A program made the translations under genes and the position numbers. From a virus (taxonomy: Duplodnaviria; Heunggongvirae; Uroviricota; Caudoviricetes): a stretch of DNA of 25,188 nucleotides. Of this stretch, positions 2,323 through 21,018 are shown piece by piece. The stretch lies in the IMG/VR virus record IMGVR_UViG_2547132281_000006, positions 1 to 25,188 of that record, one strand, 5' to 3'. The notes below the pieces were generated by a model. The model did no database searches, was not told the origin of the DNA, and was given only the letters and a program-made list of their open reading frames with translations. The first letter of the stretch is position 1. Each line of letters starts with the position of its first letter.

Positions 2323-3828
2323 TCATGGCATGGCCATGAGCATTTTCACGTCCGCATCACCGTCTTCTGACGCCTGTGACACGCCCCCCTGGACCGCAGC
2401 CGGTGAATGGTTCGCCATGAAATGTTCAAACAGGGCGGTTGTGGATGCAGAGACCGGTTCTGCCTTACCTGATCCCGCAGCCAGCACAGCCCGGGCGCTC
2501 TCCACGGTCATTCCCGGGCAGGCAGCCAGCTGTTCAGCCTGCGCCTCAGCCCCTTTTGCCTCATCCAGGGCCATGATCTGATCACGGAGTGATGGTCCGG
2601 CATTCGCCTGCGGTGAAGCAGCCAGGATCGGGCGGGCTTTTTCCACCGTCATCTCCGGCATCGCCGCCAGCGTTACTGCCAGTTGTTCACGACCGTTCGC
2701 TTCTTCACACGCCATAATGCGATCGGCTTCACTCTGCGCGGATGCCACCGGCTGCTGCGGTGCCGCCGCGGCCAGAATCGCCCGGGCCTGTTCAACGCTC
2801 ATGCCCTGTTGCCCTGCCAGCATCGTGGCAAGCTGTTCACGTCCTTTCGCTTCCTGGCATGTCAGGATCCCCATCACTCGCTGGTTCTCCTGCACGGCGG
2901 CTTCCGTTGCAGTTAATTGCGGCATAGTGCCTCCTCTGACATTACTGTTCAGCGCCGTGGCCATCACACTGATGGCATCCGACGCATTGATTAATTCATC
3001 CGCCAGCCCGGCCTCAATGCCGGACTGACCTTCAAAAACGGCGGCCTCTGTTCCCGTGACCGCATCCACAGACAACCCGGTATACATCGCCACTTTTTCG
3101 GCAAACATCCGGTGCGCCGCATCAATCCGCTGCTGCATATCCTGGCGAACCTCTGCCGGCAACGCTTCAAACTGATTGCCATCCACCTTGTGCGCCCCGG
3201 CATAAATCAGCGTGATATCCACACCGGCCTGCGCCAGATGACCGGCATAGCTGACATGGCTCATCATCACGCCAATGGAGCCGATACGGGATGTCTGGGT
3301 AACCAGCCGTCGGGAGCAGGCCGACGCCAGCAGCATGGCTGCAGAACAGGCCGTGTCATTGCACAGTGCCCAGACCGGCTTCTGCTGACGGAGGCGGTAA
3401 ATCATGTCAGCGCAGTCAAACGCGCCGGCGGCCTGCCCGCCCGGACTGTCAATGTCCAGCAGTATGCCCCGCACCTGGCTATCTGCCATTGCCTGCTGAA
3501 GACAGGCGACAATGCCGTCATAGCCAGTCATTCCGGAAAATGGCCGCATCCCCCCCAGCCGGTGCACCAGCGTGCCGCTCACCGGCAGTACCGCAATACC
3601 GTTCACCACCCGGTAAACACGGGCCGGTCGTTTACCTCCGGCCATGTACTCGTCCGTTTCAGCCAGCATTCCGGGAGCATCAAGCTGTACCTGCTGTTGT
3701 GGTACCGAAAGACTTGCTGCCCCCATCTCGCGCCCGAGCGCGCAAAAGAAAACCCGCGCATAGGCGGGCTCCAGAAGCAGCGGTTCATTGAATGCTGCGG
3801 CAATAATGTGTGAAAGATTACGTCTCAC
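2323..3828 (-). CDS. C: Prohead protease / scaffold (lambda C/Nu3-like, S49 peptidase family) with tandem C-terminal repeats
   Basis: 501 aa; N-terminal S49/ClpP-like region (ILLDIDSPGG...); C-terminal part has three ~33-aa tandem repeats (EAKGREQLA...GMSVEQARAILAA). Confidence 0.85.
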   Translation of the reverse strand: MRRNLSHIIAAAFNEPLLLEPAYARVFFCALGREMGAASLSVPQQQVQLDAPGMLAETDEYMAGGKRPARVYRVVNGIAVLPVSGTLVHRLGGMRPFSGMTGYDGIVACLQQAMADSQVRGILLDIDSPGGQAAGAFDCADMIYRLRQQKPVWALCNDTACSAAMLLASACSRRLVTQTSRIGSIGVMMSHVSYAGHLAQAGVDITLIYAGAHKVDGNQFEALPAEVRQDMQQRIDAAHRMFAEKVAMYTGLSVDAVTGTEAAVFEGQSGIEAGLADELINASDAISVMATALNSNVRGGTMPQLTATEAAVQENQRVMGILTCQEAKGREQLATMLAGQQGMSVEQARAILAAAAPQQPVASAQSEADRIMACEEANGREQLAVTLAAMPEMTVEKARPILAASPQANAGPSLRDQIMALDEAKGAEAQAEQLAACPGMTVESARAVLAAGSGKAEPVSASTTALFEHFMANHSPAAVQGGVSQASEDGDADVKMLMAMP

Positions 3829-14180: not shown

Positions 14181-14214
14181 GGAGTTTACTCACATCTGAC
14201 AAAATCAATATAAA

Positions 14215-14236
14215 CAGCCCCTCCGGAGAGGGGCTG
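14215..14236 (-). terminator. GC-rich hairpin downstream of the tRNA cluster
   Basis: 9-bp stem CAGCCCCTC / GAGGGGCTG with 4-nt loop; on the minus strand followed by TTTATATTGATTTTG. Confidence 0.4.
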
Positions 14237-14471
14237 GAGAGTGGCGCTATGTGCCATTGCATGGTGCCGGGTGCCTCCCGGTGAATTCAGTACCAGCACC
14301 TGAATCCGCGATTATCCCATATACCTACTCGCTGATTGCCCCTCCGCACAGGGGGATTCACCATGCCAGTTTCTTTTAACAAACTCCCCGCAAACCAGAC
14401 AACAGTCAACCGCCTAAATTGTGAGACATTTAAAAAAAAGGCCCACAAAAGCGAGCCAGGGAAAATAAGTG

Positions 14472-14548
14472 TGGCGCGTTGTACTGGATTCGAACCAGTG
14501 ACCGATTGCTTAGAAGGCAATTGCTCTGTCCGGCTGAGCTAACAACGC
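14472..14548 (-). tRNA. tRNA-Arg (anticodon TCT)
   Basis: Reverse complement folds as a cloverleaf: acceptor GCGTTGT/ACAACGC, D-arm GCTC..GAGC, anticodon loop CTTCTAA, T-arm ACTGG-TTCGAAT-CCAGT, encoded CCA. Confidence 0.85.
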
Positions 14549-14561
14549 ATGATGCAGATAA

Positions 14562-14638
14562 TGGACCGCCATCGGGGACTTGAACCCCGCGCAACCAGCT
14601 TCGAAGGCTGGCGCTCTTTCCTGATGAGCTAATGGCGG
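14562..14638 (-). tRNA. tRNA-Arg (anticodon TCG)
   Basis: Acceptor CCGCCAT/ATGGCGG, D-arm GCTC..GAGC, anticodon stem CCAGC/GCTGG with loop CTTCGAA, T-arm CGGGG-TTCAAGT-CCCCG, encoded CCA. Confidence 0.8.
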
Positions 14639-14645
14639 TATGTGA

Positions 14646-14721
14646 TGGTGGCCCTTGCTGGATTTGAACCAGCGACCTGGCGATTATGAGTCGCTCGCTC
14701 TCACCACTGAGCTAAAGGGCC
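14646..14721 (-). tRNA. tRNA with CAT anticodon (Ile2/lysidine type, ileX/ileZ-like, or Met)
   Basis: Sequence GGCCCTTTAGCTCAGTGGTGAGAGCGAGCGACTCATAATCGCCAGGTCGCTGGTTCAAATCCAGCAAGGGCCACCA closely resembles recalled E. coli ileX. Confidence 0.8.
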
Positions 14722-18197: not shown

Positions 18198-18698
18198 ATG
18201 AAAAGAAAATCCCTGTCAGAGATCGACCTGCAAGCCGCCCAGAGACTGAAAGAAATCTGGACGGCGAAAAAAAATCAACTAGGGTTAACCCAAGAGCGTG
18301 CGGCAGAAATTCTGGGATTTTCGACACAGGGAGCTGTAAGCCATTATCTAAATGGTCAGACACCTTTAAATCTTGAGGCTGTTATCAAGTTCGCAGGGTT
18401 GCTGCAAGTTCCTCCCGAGTCAATCAGACCAGATATGGCCGAGTTGTTACAAATTGTAAGGATGTATCCCCAAGAATCTGGGGAGGACAATGTTGTCACT
18501 ATATCTGCAGATATGGAACAATCGGAAAACGAACTTCCGTTTAATATAGACCCCATGGAGCGGGATTTGCTCCAGACGTTCAGGGCTTTCCCCAAAGAAG
18601 ATAAAGAGAAAATGCTTAAGGAAATGAAGGAGAAAAAAGAATCAATTGAAGAAATCGTTGCGCGATGGCTAGCTGCGCAAAAGGGTCGTCGCGCCTAA
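18198..18698 (+). CDS. DicA-like prophage repressor (HTH, no LexA-type peptidase domain)
   Basis: 166 aa; HTH LGLTQERAAEILGFSTQGAVSHYLNG; C-terminal region resembles recalled DicA; no S24 peptidase motifs. Confidence 0.75.
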   Translation: MKRKSLSEIDLQAAQRLKEIWTAKKNQLGLTQERAAEILGFSTQGAVSHYLNGQTPLNLEAVIKFAGLLQVPPESIRPDMAELLQIVRMYPQESGEDNVVTISADMEQSENELPFNIDPMERDLLQTFRAFPKEDKEKMLKEMKEKKESIEEIVARWLAAQKGRRA

Positions 18699-18715: not shown

Positions 18716-18907
18716 ATGAGTACAGCCCTTTCCCCGATAATTTCTGAATTTGAAACAGTCGAACAAGAAAACAGCTATAACGAATGGTTGCGAACCAAAG
18801 TGGCAGCAAGCCTCTCAGATCCCCGTCCTGCAATTCCACATGACGAAGTAATGGCTGAAATGGAAAACCTTATTGCTCAATTAGCTGCAACGAACAGGAG
18901 TGAGTAA
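18716..18907 (+). CDS. Type II antitoxin (ParD-like) paired with the downstream ParE/RelE toxin
   Basis: 63 aa; GAGGAGG SD; stop overlaps the toxin start (TAATG); acidic C-terminus. Confidence 0.65.
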   Translation: MSTALSPIISEFETVEQENSYNEWLRTKVAASLSDPRPAIPHDEVMAEMENLIAQLAATNRSE

Positions 18908-19197
18908 TGCTGCCCATTTTATGGCTACCTTCTGCACGTGATGATTTACGTCAGATCGTAGCCTATATTGCTAAGGAAAACCCTCCCGCTGCACGTAGAC
19001 TAAAAATACGCATTGAAACATCAGTTTTGTCACTTACTGAACACCCTTATCTGTACCCACCGAGCGAAAGAGTTCCAAGTCTTCGTGAGATAGTGACTCA
19101 TCCTAACTACATAATACTTTACCGAGTAACAGCATCTAACATCGAGATCGTAAATGTAGTTCACTCACGAAGACAGTATCCAAACAAAACCTGTTAA
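18907..19197 (+). CDS. ParE/RelE-family type II toxin
   Basis: 96 aa; LPSARDDL...YIILYRV...IEIVNVVHSRRQY pattern typical of ParE/RelE toxins. Confidence 0.8.
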   Translation: MLPILWLPSARDDLRQIVAYIAKENPPAARRLKIRIETSVLSLTEHPYLYPPSERVPSLREIVTHPNYIILYRVTASNIEIVNVVHSRRQYPNKTC

Positions 19198-19210: not shown

Positions 19211-19235
19211 CAACCACCTTCGGGTGGTTTTTTTC
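19211..19235 (+). terminator. Intrinsic terminator ending the repressor/toxin-antitoxin operon
   Basis: AACCACC-TTCG-GGTGGTT followed by TTTTTTT. Confidence 0.7.
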
Positions 19236-19245
19236 TTGCCACGAT

Positions 19246-19285
19246 AATAGCACTGCTATTTACATAATTAAATAGTAGTGGTATT
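19246..19285. promoter_or_regulatory. Second operator pair with the same motif and spacing (OL-like), upstream of the ydfA-dicF-dicB operon
   Basis: AATAGCACTGCTATT (19246-19260, perfect palindrome) and AATAGTAGTGGTATT (19271-19285), again 25 bp apart. Confidence 0.5.
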
Positions 19286-19466
19286 GTTCATTCATCAACC
19301 CACCCCGCCCCACAGAACGCCAGGCAATACTTCGAGTTACCCGGCAGTGGTCAGGGGTTAAGTAGCCAGCCCGAGGCGTAAGAACATGACGGCAGGGTTC
19401 AACTTTAATAACTATGCAGCAGGTTTTTGTTCCGCTACCCCGGCGTTAAGGGGAAATGAGGTCAGC

Positions 19467-19619
19467 ATGGATACTATCGAGCTTGGCAACAACGAATCTC
19501 TGGTATGCGGCGTGTTTCCCAACCAGGACGGCACGTTTACCGCGATGACATATACCAGAAGCAAAACGTTTAAAACTGAAGCTGGCGCGCGTCGCTGGTT
19601 AACCAGAAACACTGACTGA
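19467..19619 (+). CDS. YdfA-like small protein
   Basis: 50 aa from internal ATG 19467 (GAGG SD); MDTIELGNNESLVCGVFPNQDGTFTAMTYTRSKTFKTE resembles recalled Qin YdfA. Confidence 0.6.
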   Translation: MDTIELGNNESLVCGVFPNQDGTFTAMTYTRSKTFKTEAGARRWLTRNTD

Positions 19620-19630
19620 TGAGGTTGACG

Positions 19631-20032
19631 ATGGAATTTAAAGATTTACCAGTACCATTCCAGGAAATGGCATCGAATGTGGTTCGCTCTCAACTGGCGA
19701 CTCTTGACCTGAGTACTGTAGAAAAGGAAACCATCGATACTATATCCGGTAACGTGCGTCGTGCCTTTATAGGTCTGTATGAAGAGAAGCGCCTATTCGG
19801 CGGACAGAATTCGCCTGAAAACAAGAATCAAGCAAATGATGAGAAGCTGAAACACATTATCGCCTTACTTTTGGAAGACGCAAAACGTCTACAGCAACTG
19901 GAACCAAATGCAGGCACAGAGGCCCGCATTTGGATTGCCATGAAATCACTCAAATGTGAAAGCAGTGATTATTTCAAAACAACAATTAAAACTACTCAAC
20001 TTTCGGGAGAGCTACTGAAGAAATTGCCATAA
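19631..20032 (+). CDS. Hypothetical ~133-aa protein (unknown family)
   Basis: ORF with GAGG SD before ATG 19631 (alternative ATG 19619 overlaps the ydfA-like stop as TGATG); helical-looking; 3' end overlaps the convergent minus-strand ORF by 41 bp. Confidence 0.5.
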   Translation: MEFKDLPVPFQEMASNVVRSQLATLDLSTVEKETIDTISGNVRRAFIGLYEEKRLFGGQNSPENKNQANDEKLKHIIALLLEDAKRLQQLEPNAGTEARIWIAMKSLKCESSDYFKTTIKTTQLSGELLKKLP

Positions 20033-20273
20033 GAGCATGGTCTTTCTCTTGTTCTGCAAGATGAGCATTAATACCTGGTATGGTTTTTTCAAATTTATCT
20101 ATCTGTTGAATAACAACTTCGCGGTATACGTTTGTTTTTGTACCACCAAGCGCAGCCGTTAATGCAGAAAGCATATTTAGTATCATATCAGTGCGATATG
20201 AAAGAATCCTGATAGCTTCATCTTGTTTTTCAATAATAGATTGCAGGGCCTCAATTTGCTTTTTATCCATTTC
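19992..20273 (-). CDS. Hypothetical 93-aa coiled-coil-like protein, antisense within the early-left operon
   Basis: ATG at 20273 preceded by strong SD GGAGGG; AT-rich; sequence MDKKQIEALQSIIEKQDEAIRILSYRTDMILNMLSALTAAL. Confidence 0.45.
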   Translation of the reverse strand, partial: EMDKKQIEALQSIIEKQDEAIRILSYRTDMILNMLSALTAALGGTKTNVYREVVIQQIDKFEKTIPGINAHLAEQEKDHALMAISSVALPKVE

Positions 20274-20602
20274 ACCCTCCTGAGGGTTGGTAATTAAGGA
20301 GTTCTCCACGGGTCAGGTGGAGTGCGTGCGCCGGACACGGGTGAACATCCGGCACTGACAGTTTACTGAAAGGATATGTCCCTGAAAAGTCAGGGCATAA
20401 AGCGAAAGCGCACGGCGAAATTGGTCTCTCTGTACGGTGTCGTTAAATTTAGTTCGACCGTGCGCTTCCGGTTGTGGCACTCCGCGAAATGGCGCGGCGG
20501 TAAGTATGGCGGGGTTATTCCTTCCCCCGTTGAGGACACCGGGTTGTCAGGTTGACCATACGCTTAAGTGACAACTCCGCTGCAACGCCCTCTGTTATCA
20601 AT

Positions 20603-20655
20603 TTTCTGGTGACTTTTGGCGGTATCAGTTTTACTCCGTGACTGCTCTGCCGCCC
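20603..20655 (+). ncRNA. dicF: DicF small RNA (ftsZ-targeting sRNA of Qin-type prophages)
   Basis: TTTCTGGTGACTTTTGGCGGTATCAGTTTTACTCCGTGACTGCTCTGCCGCCC followed by TTTTT matches recalled K-12 DicF with ~2 substitutions; lies immediately upstream of the dicB-like gene. Confidence 0.8.
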
Positions 20656-20829
20656 TTTTTAAAGTGAATTTTGTGATGTGGTGAATGCGGCTGAGCGCAC
20701 GCGGAACAGTTAAAACCAAAAACAGTGTTATGGGTGGATTCTCTGTATCCGGCGTTAATTGTTAACTGGTTAACGTCACCTGGAGGCACCAGGCACCGCA
20801 TCACAAAATTCATTGTTGAGGACGCGATA

Positions 20830-21018
20830 ATGGAAACGTTATTACCAAACGTTAATACGTCTGAAGGTTGTTTTGATATTGGTGTTCTGCTCAGTAACCG
20901 GGAGTTTACGGAAGATGCCATTAAGATGAGAAAATATGAACCTTATCTTCTCAATGATAATTCCATACTTTCCAGAATTGCCCTTCTTGAACTTGGTATT
21001 ATCGGAGAACAGCAGTGA
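20830..21018 (+). CDS. dicB: DicB-like cell-division inhibitor
   Basis: 62 aa from ATG 20830 (GAGGA SD); METLLPNVNTSEGCFDIGV...FTEDAI matches the recalled K-12 DicB N-terminal half. Confidence 0.75.
   Translation: METLLPNVNTSEGCFDIGVLLSNREFTEDAIKMRKYEPYLLNDNSILSRIALLELGIIGEQQ

Follow-up and report, generated by a model that had tools for sequence, protein, structure and literature searches.

The untranslated DicF leader of a Qin-type dicBF prophage operon and a putative four-way-junction RNA domain within it

DicF is a textbook prophage small RNA (sRNA) that controls cell division, metabolism and the virulence of enterohaemorrhagic Escherichia coli; in E. coli K-12 it belongs to the dicBF operon of the Qin prophage (Faubladier 1990). 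In K-12, DicF represses ftsZ in an Hfq-dependent manner and the 5' end of its 53-nt form is made by RNase E (PMC10448788, PMC5069750), with no internal promoter (PMC10448788). Longer species include a 72-nt form generated by RNase III (PMC5069750) and a 190-nt species whose 5' end RNase III makes within the spacer preceding DicF (Ragunathan 2023, PMC10448788), for which the literature term is "long untranslated region containing dicF" (Balasubramanian 2016, PMC5069750). The terminated ydfABC-dicF transcript is readily detected in K-12, and the read-through transcript accumulates only upon inactivation of RNase E (PMC10448788). Here, the homologous locus is described in a Caudoviricetes DNA of 25,188 nt (IMG/VR record IMGVR_UViG_2547132281_000006, positions 1 to 25,188; this whole stretch is called the window), in which positions 20285-20660 can be assigned with great confidence to the long untranslated leader and DicF of a Qin-type dicBF operon, an early-left, repressor-controlled prophage operon. 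The proximal 117 nt of this leader (20471-20586) constitute a discrete, covarying and portable RNA domain, which an initial annotation of the window had missed.

Other processed sRNAs, such as SroC and CpxQ, are Hfq-dependent RNAs derived from 3' untranslated regions or from within operons (reviewed in PMC9438474). As with DicF, RNase E releases them from a longer mRNA, and their 3' end is set by an intrinsic terminator. To our knowledge, neither a conserved tertiary-structured domain 5' of the seed nor a pathway of RNase III followed by RNase E is known for examples of this type.

The DicF locus in comparison with E. coli K-12

Window positions 20285-20899 align with positions 3001-3617 of the K-12-like locus L001 at 93.5% identity over 618 aligned positions, which identifies the leader as the spacer downstream of ydfC, a gene that ends ~340 nt before DicF in the K-12-like genome L001 and in phage Tritos. 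Of 5426 complete E. coli genomes searched by megablast with a 387-nt query, 4317 gave a match, and coverage was 80% or more in 3438 of them; the region is almost always unannotated. In the window and in K-12 Qin dicBF the order of leader, DicF, structured spacer, dicB, DUF1482 gene and exonuclease is the same, as are the RNase III stem, the linker and the terminator. Unlike K-12, the operon of the window lacks ydfB and ydfC and carries a 137-aa open reading frame (ORF) and an antisense 92-aa ORF before the leader; its hairpin H3 is intact, whereas that of K-12 is weakened, and nt 12 of DicF differs. K-12 is without the minus-strand 92-aa gene and yet keeps the leader region.

The initial annotation had recognized a near-perfect DicF with a U-tail ahead of a dicB-like gene, and both hold. 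The 53-nt K-12 form corresponds to 20603-20655 (+), and Rfam RF00039 matches 20604-20655 (+) over its full length (model positions 1-52 of 52) at 75.8 bits, well beyond the gathering score of 48. The terminator hairpin (20618-20654), for which a dG of about -15 kcal/mol was obtained in the K-12 type, is followed by a T5 tail at 20656-20660. The single base difference from K-12 DicF is U for G at nt 12 (window 20614); the window reads UGACUUUUGG as against UGACGUUUGG in K-12, and relatives have G, A or U at this position. The 62-aa dicB gene (20830-21018, +), which is served by read-through of the DicF terminator, matches Pfam PF05358 with 129.5 bits over profile positions 1-62 of 62.

The upstream region had been proposed to be either a structured precursor and processing substrate or a decayed equivalent of ydfB/ydfC. 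The former is borne out, being already established for the homologous K-12 sequence (PMC10448788). The latter fails, as neither a DNA nor a protein match to these genes exists in the window (the best blastn/tblastn match in the whole window has E = 3.7-6), and relatives with intact ydfABC keep the spacer too, among them the closest one (L003, 99.9%), which has intact ydfA, ydfB and ydfC plus the same spacer downstream.

As regards processing, the long stem H4 (20403-20470, +) would be the RNase III site that sets the 5' end of the ~190-nt RNA. Its basal stem, CG.AAGCGCACGGCGA / UCGACCGUGCGCUU.CG, comprises 14-16 bp and is kept in 36 sequence variants with a varying apex; H4 folds with a z-score of -2.24. 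A length of 190 nt, measured from the 3' end of DicF, reaches to 20466-20471, in the 3' arm of H4, and the double-stranded RNase III site expected ~137 nt upstream of the DicF 5' end in a precursor of the K-12 kind would be H4. Fig. S1 of PMC10448788 prints a sequence homologous to window positions ~20420-20655 as the region to which the RNase III site had been mapped. Loci of the cdtI/Stx2c type (GAGGGCAUUUA/UAAGUGCUCUC) and of the F1055 type (GAGAGCAUUG/CAGUGCUCUC) have long stems there that are not homologous to H4 and yet share its end point. In Salmonella phage F1055 (L151, 2395-2500), as also in L127 and L145 (Izhakiella), this stem encloses two hairpins with the canonical tRNA T-arm sequences CUGGUUCGAUUCCAG and GUCCGUUCAAUUCGGAC, where ARAGORN reports no tRNA.

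Between domain and DicF lies a linker (20587-20613, +), in which minimum free energy (MFE) structures predict a small hairpin of GUUAUCA (20594-600) with UGGUGAC (20607-13), whose loop would hold the position of the DicF 5' end (20602/20603), without compensatory changes in the pairs; as modelled, the hairpin would mask the DicF seed. Downstream of DicF, the dicF-dicB spacer is structured and STnc100-like (20653-20862, +; a sub-threshold Rfam match to STnc100 at 38.7 bits, E=1e-6, where the gathering score is 47). Its outer stem, found by blastn as an inverted repeat, is an 18-19-bp duplex of 20666-20683 with 20794-20811. This duplex is probably the downstream RNase III site, in which case the 3' end of a 72-nt DicF would be 20674; since the outer duplex contains this expected end, folds of the STnc100 type may be RNase III sites upstream of phage genes. 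A full STnc100 RNA (132.4 bits) is present elsewhere in the window, at 14206-14395 on the minus strand, just downstream of three tRNA genes (Met-CAT, Arg-TCG, Arg-TCT; 14472-14721, minus strand), and the block 14206-14721 may be a late-region sRNA/tRNA block of lambdoid prophages.

The proximal domain, its fold and its distribution

The proximal domain (20471-20586, +; 117 nt) was delineated from comparative analysis and MFE folding. A closing helix P1 (20471-78/20579-86) encloses P2 (20482-86/20493-97), P3 and P4 (20542-49/20569-76), the last with a 19-nt loop. P3 consists of P3a (20498-501/20538-41), an 8x8 internal loop and P3b (20510-14/20525-29). A 6-bp pseudoknot joins GUAUGG (20504-09), on the 5' side of the P3 internal loop, with CCAUAC (20556-61) in the P4 loop. 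The RNA structure prediction called for in the initial annotation yields the same junction, as the MFE structure of the isolated window sequence coincides with the comparative fold. The covariance model built for the domain, R1, scores 144.8 bits in the window and finds a single copy there.

Evidence for a four-way junction with a pseudoknot as a selected fold, which we consider highly probable, comes from three alignments. In the first MAFFT alignment (A2, 65 distinct sequences), 96.6% of paired cells can pair and seven pairs have changed on both sides, which none of 500 shuffles reached, while slid controls gave 34-61%. In the second (A3, 39 distinct), which takes in phages P1 and P7 and the pseudoknot, 95.1% pair with nine double-changed pairs, again with 0/500 shuffles and with slid controls at 31-52%. 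The alignment fitted to the covariance model (A4, 70 distinct) gave 96.7% with 13 double-changed pairs, 0/500 shuffles and slid controls at 56% or less. Compensatory changes were observed in P3b (CGGGG/CCCCG, CUGGGG/CUCCAG, CAGGG/CCCUG, CUGGG/CCCAG), in P4 (GUUGUCA/UGACAAC, GUAACCA/UGGUUAC, GUUGCCA/UGGCAAC), in P3a (CGGU/ACCG and, in phage P7, CGGC/GCCG) and in helix P1 (GGC/GCU, GGU/ACC), and in the pseudoknot between the close relatives P7 and P1 (GUAUGG/CCAUAC vs GCAUGG/CCAUGC). The loop and junction bases GGUAAGUAUGG, CAGGUUGACCAU and ACACC are nearly invariant. In most loci, 19-24 nt of P2/P3a were held constant by the pattern used for retrieval, the phage P1-type sequences obtained by BLAST being exempt, and seven chance matches of an exact-pattern contig scan in unrelated metagenome-assembled genomes (MAGs) were left out.

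Certain properties of the data weigh against the fold. The model-fitted alignment A4 leans towards the model; mean column identity in the alignments is 80-89%, and the compensatory events are few, several stemming from the same lineages (phage P1 type, L127). Neither the region nor the domain has a folding energy better than that of shuffled sequence, the z-score being -1.59 for 20285-20660 (6/100 shuffles fold as well) and +0.12 for 20468-20594 (127 nt); accordingly, of the earlier description of the region as hairpin-rich the presence of stem-loops stands, while folding energy by itself does not exceed chance; the occurrence of the region across E. coli genomes and the compensatory changes of its proximal part clearly do. 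The minus strand folds slightly better overall (z = -2.71); the plus-strand reading is kept because the U-G and G-U pairs of helix P1 are possible on the plus strand only and the published K-12 transcripts run in that direction. No Rfam 15 family matched 20285-20602, either at gathering scores or at E<=10. A tRNA or tRNA-like gene was rejected, as ARAGORN reports no tRNA in the window other than the three at 14472-14721, and the domain was likewise negative in six related loci.

The domain recurs in different surroundings. Without H1-H4 and without DicF it is found in phages cdtI, Ayreon and 2H10 and in Stx2c phages. Of 133 loci, 131 have an intrinsic terminator, consisting of a stable hairpin and a T-run, within 125 nt after helix P1, at a median start of 24 nt. 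At least seven different seed/terminator cassettes occur behind the same domain: DicF in 87 loci, the DicF seed with other terminators in six, the cdtI type with almost no linker in 25, CAUGUGUAGUC in four and CCAUGUUGAUUACC in five, besides two long forms and, separately from these, the cassette of L072 and the phage P1 type. Differing putative seeds, such as CAUGUGUAGUC, CCAUGUUGAUUACC and GUUGUGUAUUGCUGUGUGUAGUC, are seen in L004, L008, L069, L072, L127, L046 and others. Several of them are GU-rich and presumably resemble the R1 seed of GcvB. The CA-rich cassette of the cdtI type is not AgvB, which is located in the late region (PMC7873438). The general unit thus consists of a 5' end given by a long stem or a transcription start, the domain framed by helix P1, a variable linker with the seed, and a terminator, altogether ~180-195 nt, and it matches RNAs seen in vivo, namely the 190-nt DicF and sRNA-17.

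Phages P1 and P7 contain a true homologue of the domain (R1 scores of 78-88 bits across the P1-type sequences, 76-82% identity), in which P2, P3a, P3b, P4 and the pseudoknot are kept through compensatory changes. In contrast to the window, their domain is not placed behind a long processing stem but begins ~25 nt after the start of the C1-controlled Pban of the ban operon; the closing helix P1 is cut to ~4 bp, there is no DicF seed, the terminator is different, and the genes of tRNA-Asn and tRNA-Thr follow rather than dicB. The unit from domain to terminator measures ~180 nt in phage P1, and GenBank NC_005856 annotates part of the phage P1 domain as "dicF-like region". The domain is present in 511 plasmid records, mostly of P1-like phage-plasmids.

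sRNA-17 of E. coli K1 RS218, encoded in an mEp460-like prophage, is a 193-nt RNA mapped by rapid amplification of cDNA ends (RACE) (PMC7719688). Its locus was read in L155 (2501-2693; E. coli strain 120899), which is identical to the RS218 sRNA-17 primers. The RACE-mapped 5' end, at CGTTGTGG, is the start of helix P1 (its first paired base or the one before) and the 3' end lies at the cdtI-type terminator, so that the mapped ends coincide with the boundaries of the proposed unit. sRNA-17 has the same early-left position after the repressor gene, a leader and pre-stem as in cdtI-type phages, and the same helix P1 (CGUUGUGGUG...CACCACAACAG), linker and terminator as cdtI-type loci. Its interior is, however, unrelated, as R1 gives 11.2 bits that all derive from P1 and P2; judged by its sequence, sRNA-17 is a sibling occupant of the same frame and not a member of the domain family. 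A diagnostic 49-mer of sRNA-17 was found by megablast in 852 of 5426 E. coli genomes, with 237 places on plasmids.

Further variants were observed. In phiSTEC1589-Stx1c (L007, 2690-2740), where an N gene is annotated, the frame of helix P1 is empty (GUUGUG-AAUA-ACAAC), with H1-H4 and a cassette with the GUGUAGUC seed kept. The E. coli plasmid NZ_CP104667 (L157, 295-398) carries a recombinant domain, whose 5' part (P2 loop) is of the phage P1 type and whose P3 interior is lambdoid; exchange therefore occurs inside the domain. Actinobacillus phage vB_Apl-pPE4 (L150, 2440-2720), which has DicA, YdaT, Kil and exonuclease VIII genes typical of E. coli prophages, carries a 5'-truncated copy without the 5' strands of P1 and P2 and with a duplicated CCCCGCCACAACAACCCAUGUUGAUUACC segment. 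Three dicF loci of E. coli type in MAGs labelled Veillonella parvula (L136), Collinsella sp. (L143) and soil Proteobacteria bin (L138) are probably mis-binned enterobacterial prophage contigs.

The distal leader and the gene neighbourhood

Upstream of the domain, the distal half of the leader (20285-20470) contains, apart from H4, three hairpins read from the sequence. H1 (CTCCAC-GGGTCAG-GTGGAG, 20304-20322, +) is kept in 31 of 33 relatives with almost no covariation and is replaced by unrelated hairpins in other prophages; the initial annotation had placed this real hairpin 10 nt off, at 20294-20312. H2 (GCCGGA-N12-TCCGGC, 20330-20353, +) has an invariant stem and a variable loop in 33 relatives, without compensatory changes, and RNAalifold favours an alternative long-range partner for it at 20467-72. 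H3 (CCCUGA-AAAG-UCAGGG, 20380-20395, +), located correctly at the outset, has one compensatory variant (CUCUGA/UCAGAG), and the common K-12 type (UCAGAC) breaks two of its six pairs; analogous CCUG...CAGG hairpins stand at the same place in other leader types. Breakpoints of homology among 150 loci, at ~20285, 20307-14, 20325, 20380, 20403, 20440 and 20471, fall mostly at or near hairpin boundaries. By these sequence comparisons, the distal 185 nt (H1-H3) are mosaic leader sequence without a demonstrated structure-dependent role.

That the region is GC-rich was confirmed, with a G+C content of 0.50-0.52 at the leader vs 0.38-0.43 in the flanks (measured over 300 nt) and of 0.59 in the proximal 123 nt. 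As had been stated, no ORF of 60 aa or more lies wholly within 20274-20603 on the plus strand, the first bases being overlapped by a minus-strand ORF. The 59-aa ORF reported at 20376-20555 exists, but alignment evidence shows that it arose by chance. Of 83 loci in which the TGAAAAGT[C/T]AG motif of H3 persists, only 11 possess the ATG of this ORF, and in the K-12 type a stop is reached after 15 codons. Indels of 1 nt separate the relatives, substitutions lack a 3-base periodicity (minor-allele counts of 166/167/146 over the codon phases), and no Pfam match was obtained. Minus-strand ORFs of 49 aa and 55 aa were likewise rejected as coding.

The minus-strand ORF in question encodes 92 aa (19992-20270, also given as 19992-20309), has a strong GGAGG Shine-Dalgarno sequence and overlaps with its 3' end the end of the 137-aa ORF (19619-20032, +), inside the plus-strand operon; its promoter must fall within 20285-20400 on the minus strand. 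Neither ORF matches a Pfam family, and the same pair is annotated in L003. Further upstream are ydfA (DUF1391 by Pfam, 19467-19619), a terminator-like hairpin (19212-19229) and, after it, a candidate operon promoter at 19259-19287 (+), found by consensus scan as TTTACA-17-TATTGT with a TG extension. This promoter-like site lies within a 12-bp inverted repeat, is flanked by the helix-turn-helix (HTH) repressor and RelBE genes and by ydfA, and is a candidate equivalent of dicBp by virtue of its position alone. The HTH repressor gene occupies 18198-18698, and a RelB/RelE-type toxin-antitoxin pair, named from the annotation of near-identical relatives, occupies 18716-19197 (+), between the prophage repressor gene and the promoter-like site. 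After dicB follow a DUF1482/YdfD-like gene and an 823-aa ORF annotated as exonuclease in near-identical relatives. A full-length IS009 RNA (Rfam, 225.7 bits) is present at 1090-1288 on the minus strand.

Possible roles of the domain and their meaning

Overall, we favour, with moderate confidence, an explanation in which the locus is the known DicF leader and precursor and the folded domain is the structured body of the long-form sRNA. According to experiments on the K-12 homologue, transcription would start from the upstream repressor-controlled promoter, RNase III would cut the polycistronic transcript to yield a ~190-nt RNA ending at the DicF terminator, and a further cut by RNase E, at what corresponds to 20602/20603, would free the 53-nt DicF, with termination or read-through at 20656-60. 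Added to this by comparison are H4 as the putative RNase III site and the domain as the body of the long form, which would fix and protect the 5' end made by RNase III. The linker, kept single-stranded or weakly paired 3' of a stable fold, would be open to RNase E, and the weak hairpin GUUAUCA/UGGUGAC would, from its predicted structure, contain the DicF seed and expose the cut site in the loop. A constant carrier of this kind would let phages exchange seeds. The carrier function itself we infer only tentatively and regard as plausible rather than probable.

Several observations count against this explanation. The invariant loop and junction bases and the pseudoknot are preserved between P1-like and lambdoid phages; such tertiary conservation goes beyond what a passive carrier would seem to require and speaks for a specific partner. 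In the cdtI/Stx2c type, domain and terminator are separated by next to no linker, which means that seed presentation cannot be the only role of the domain. Compensatory support for H1-H3 was not obtained, the RNAalifold covariation term for the distal half being 0.01, and any effect of the domain on DicF maturation or stability is hypothetical.

A possibility to which we give limited credence, though well short of preference, is that the domain represents a new class of structured RNA of temperate phages with a partner of its own, most attractively the transcription machinery, and controls or overrides the terminator that follows, in the manner of put or of a riboswitch. RNAs of the put type are defined by increased read-through via the zinc-binding domain of the beta' subunit of RNA polymerase. 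Those of HK022, an N-less lambdoid phage, are ~70 nt long, have two stems and occur as one copy in each early operon (PMC9378689). Both they and the domain are folded RNAs upstream of terminators in early operons of N-less temperate phages, so that a functional analogy is possible; homology was rejected, as R1 finds nothing in the HK022 pL/pR regions (20000-33000) and the domain has four helices, not two, and a single copy.

As a more specific proposal, which we judge unlikely, the domain would be a cis-acting element that modifies RNA polymerase and is functionally like HK022 put RNA, letting transcription pass DicF-type and later terminators into dicB, the exonuclease gene, xis and int in N-less phages. 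The early operons in which the domain is found are always under repressor control, and an intrinsic terminator with further genes behind it comes directly after the domain; in phage P1 it lies ~25 nt after the promoter start, as does putL (PMC9378689). With two N proteins (lambda and phiSTEC1589) as tblastn queries, no homologue was detected in 157 loci (1.38 Mb), a search that covered these two N families only; no N-like gene stands between repressor and domain in the window, Tritos, cdtI and Stx2c phage, and the sole relative with an annotated N gene, L007, has an empty frame of helix P1. The complex conserved fold likewise suggests a macromolecular partner. However, each prophage has one copy and none is located in the rightward operon, and in K-12 the terminated transcript is prominent, with read-through accumulating only when RNase E is inactivated.

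That the domain is an independent trans-acting RNA of ~130 nt, persisting after the RNase III and RNase E cuts and binding a host or phage factor with the seeds as add-ons, is rather unlikely; such an RNA might, for instance, serve as decoy of a nuclease, a defence protein or an enzyme that handles tRNA. It would account for both domain ends being defined by processing sites, for conservation above that of the flanks, for portability between unrelated contexts and for the cdtI type, which has the domain and essentially no seed. The layout is cloverleaf-like, with T-arm-like hairpins adjoining in the F1055 type and tRNA genes in phage P1, but ARAGORN sees no tRNA-like gene and no rule for a T-loop or CCA end applies across types. 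When the sibling sRNA-17 is deleted, growth in blood and the levels of tens of transcripts are altered (PMC7719688); the interior of sRNA-17 differs, and so these phenotypes do not transfer.

A riboswitch-like or attenuator sensor, in which binding of a metabolite, protein or tRNA sets terminator formation and with it the ratio of sRNA to read-through, is improbable. The aptamer-like fold is followed by a terminator at 5-46 nt in 131 of 133 loci, the 5' arms of terminators (GGCGGUA...) repeat the GGCGGUA segment of the domain itself, and some cassettes have GU-rich seeds (GUUGUG, UGUUG) complementary to the 3' strand of helix P1 (CCACAAC), which makes alternative pairings conceivable. Yet no antiterminator pairing common to all cassette types was found, only type-specific alternatives being seen; the phage P1 terminator (GCCCAUC...) has no sequence in common with the domain, an expression platform would not usually tolerate the free variation seen in the length and sequence of the linker, and no Rfam riboswitch matched.

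It is equally improbable that the region is recently spread prophage DNA without selected structure, its hairpins being incidental or serving the minus strand, for instance as promoter or terminator of the 92-aa gene: non-significant fold energies, the distal half without covariation, sequences that are mostly >90% identical, and the minus-strand gene starting at 20270 with its promoter necessarily inside 20285-20400 would fit, but the proximal domain already contradicts it through 13 double-changed pairs at 96.7% pairing vs at most 56% in slid controls, through P1/P7 homologues (76-82%) that keep every helix and the pseudoknot by compensatory changes, through G-U pairs that fit the plus strand only, and through K-12, which keeps the region without the minus-strand gene. 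In the lambda N leader, nutL boxB is followed by an RNase III-sensitive stem, and the early-left leader of the window similarly has a long stem, a possible RNase III substrate, behind a small hairpin (H3, CCCUGAAAAG...); nevertheless, H3 as a lambda-type nut/boxB site was rejected, as its loop differs from the boxB pentaloop, inspection revealed no evident boxA, tblastn with the two N proteins found no homologue, and the commonest (K-12) variant has a broken H3 stem.

The dicBF locus, DicF and the processing of the leader are already known from K-12. Not described in Rfam 15 or in the literature consulted are the 137-nt extension as a covarying four-way junction with a pseudoknot, its being a portable module common to the ban leader of P1/P7, the placement of sRNA-17 and the 190-nt DicF on the same frame, and the several alternative seeds riding on the domain. 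This extension of the long DicF form has so far been treated as a mere precursor, and some two thirds of complete E. coli genomes, or more, possess it. Its conserved tertiary fold, wide spread, sharing with the P1 family and reuse with several seeds suggest that selection has acted on the long form as well as on the 53-nt RNA. The domain connects items that had been annotated separately, namely the 190-nt DicF, sRNA-17 and the "dicF-like region" of phage P1, provides a concrete structure for mutation, and offers phages a natural scaffold for the exchange of regulatory seeds. Even as a carrier only, the domain would be useful for annotation, being a candidate for a new RNA family. Should the domain have its own partner, N-less lambdoid phages and P1 would share an RNA switch between a short regulatory RNA and the downstream early genes, with DicF and sRNA-17-type seeds as interchangeable passengers, which raises a testable idea of how N-less temperate phages handle a terminator in the middle of an operon.

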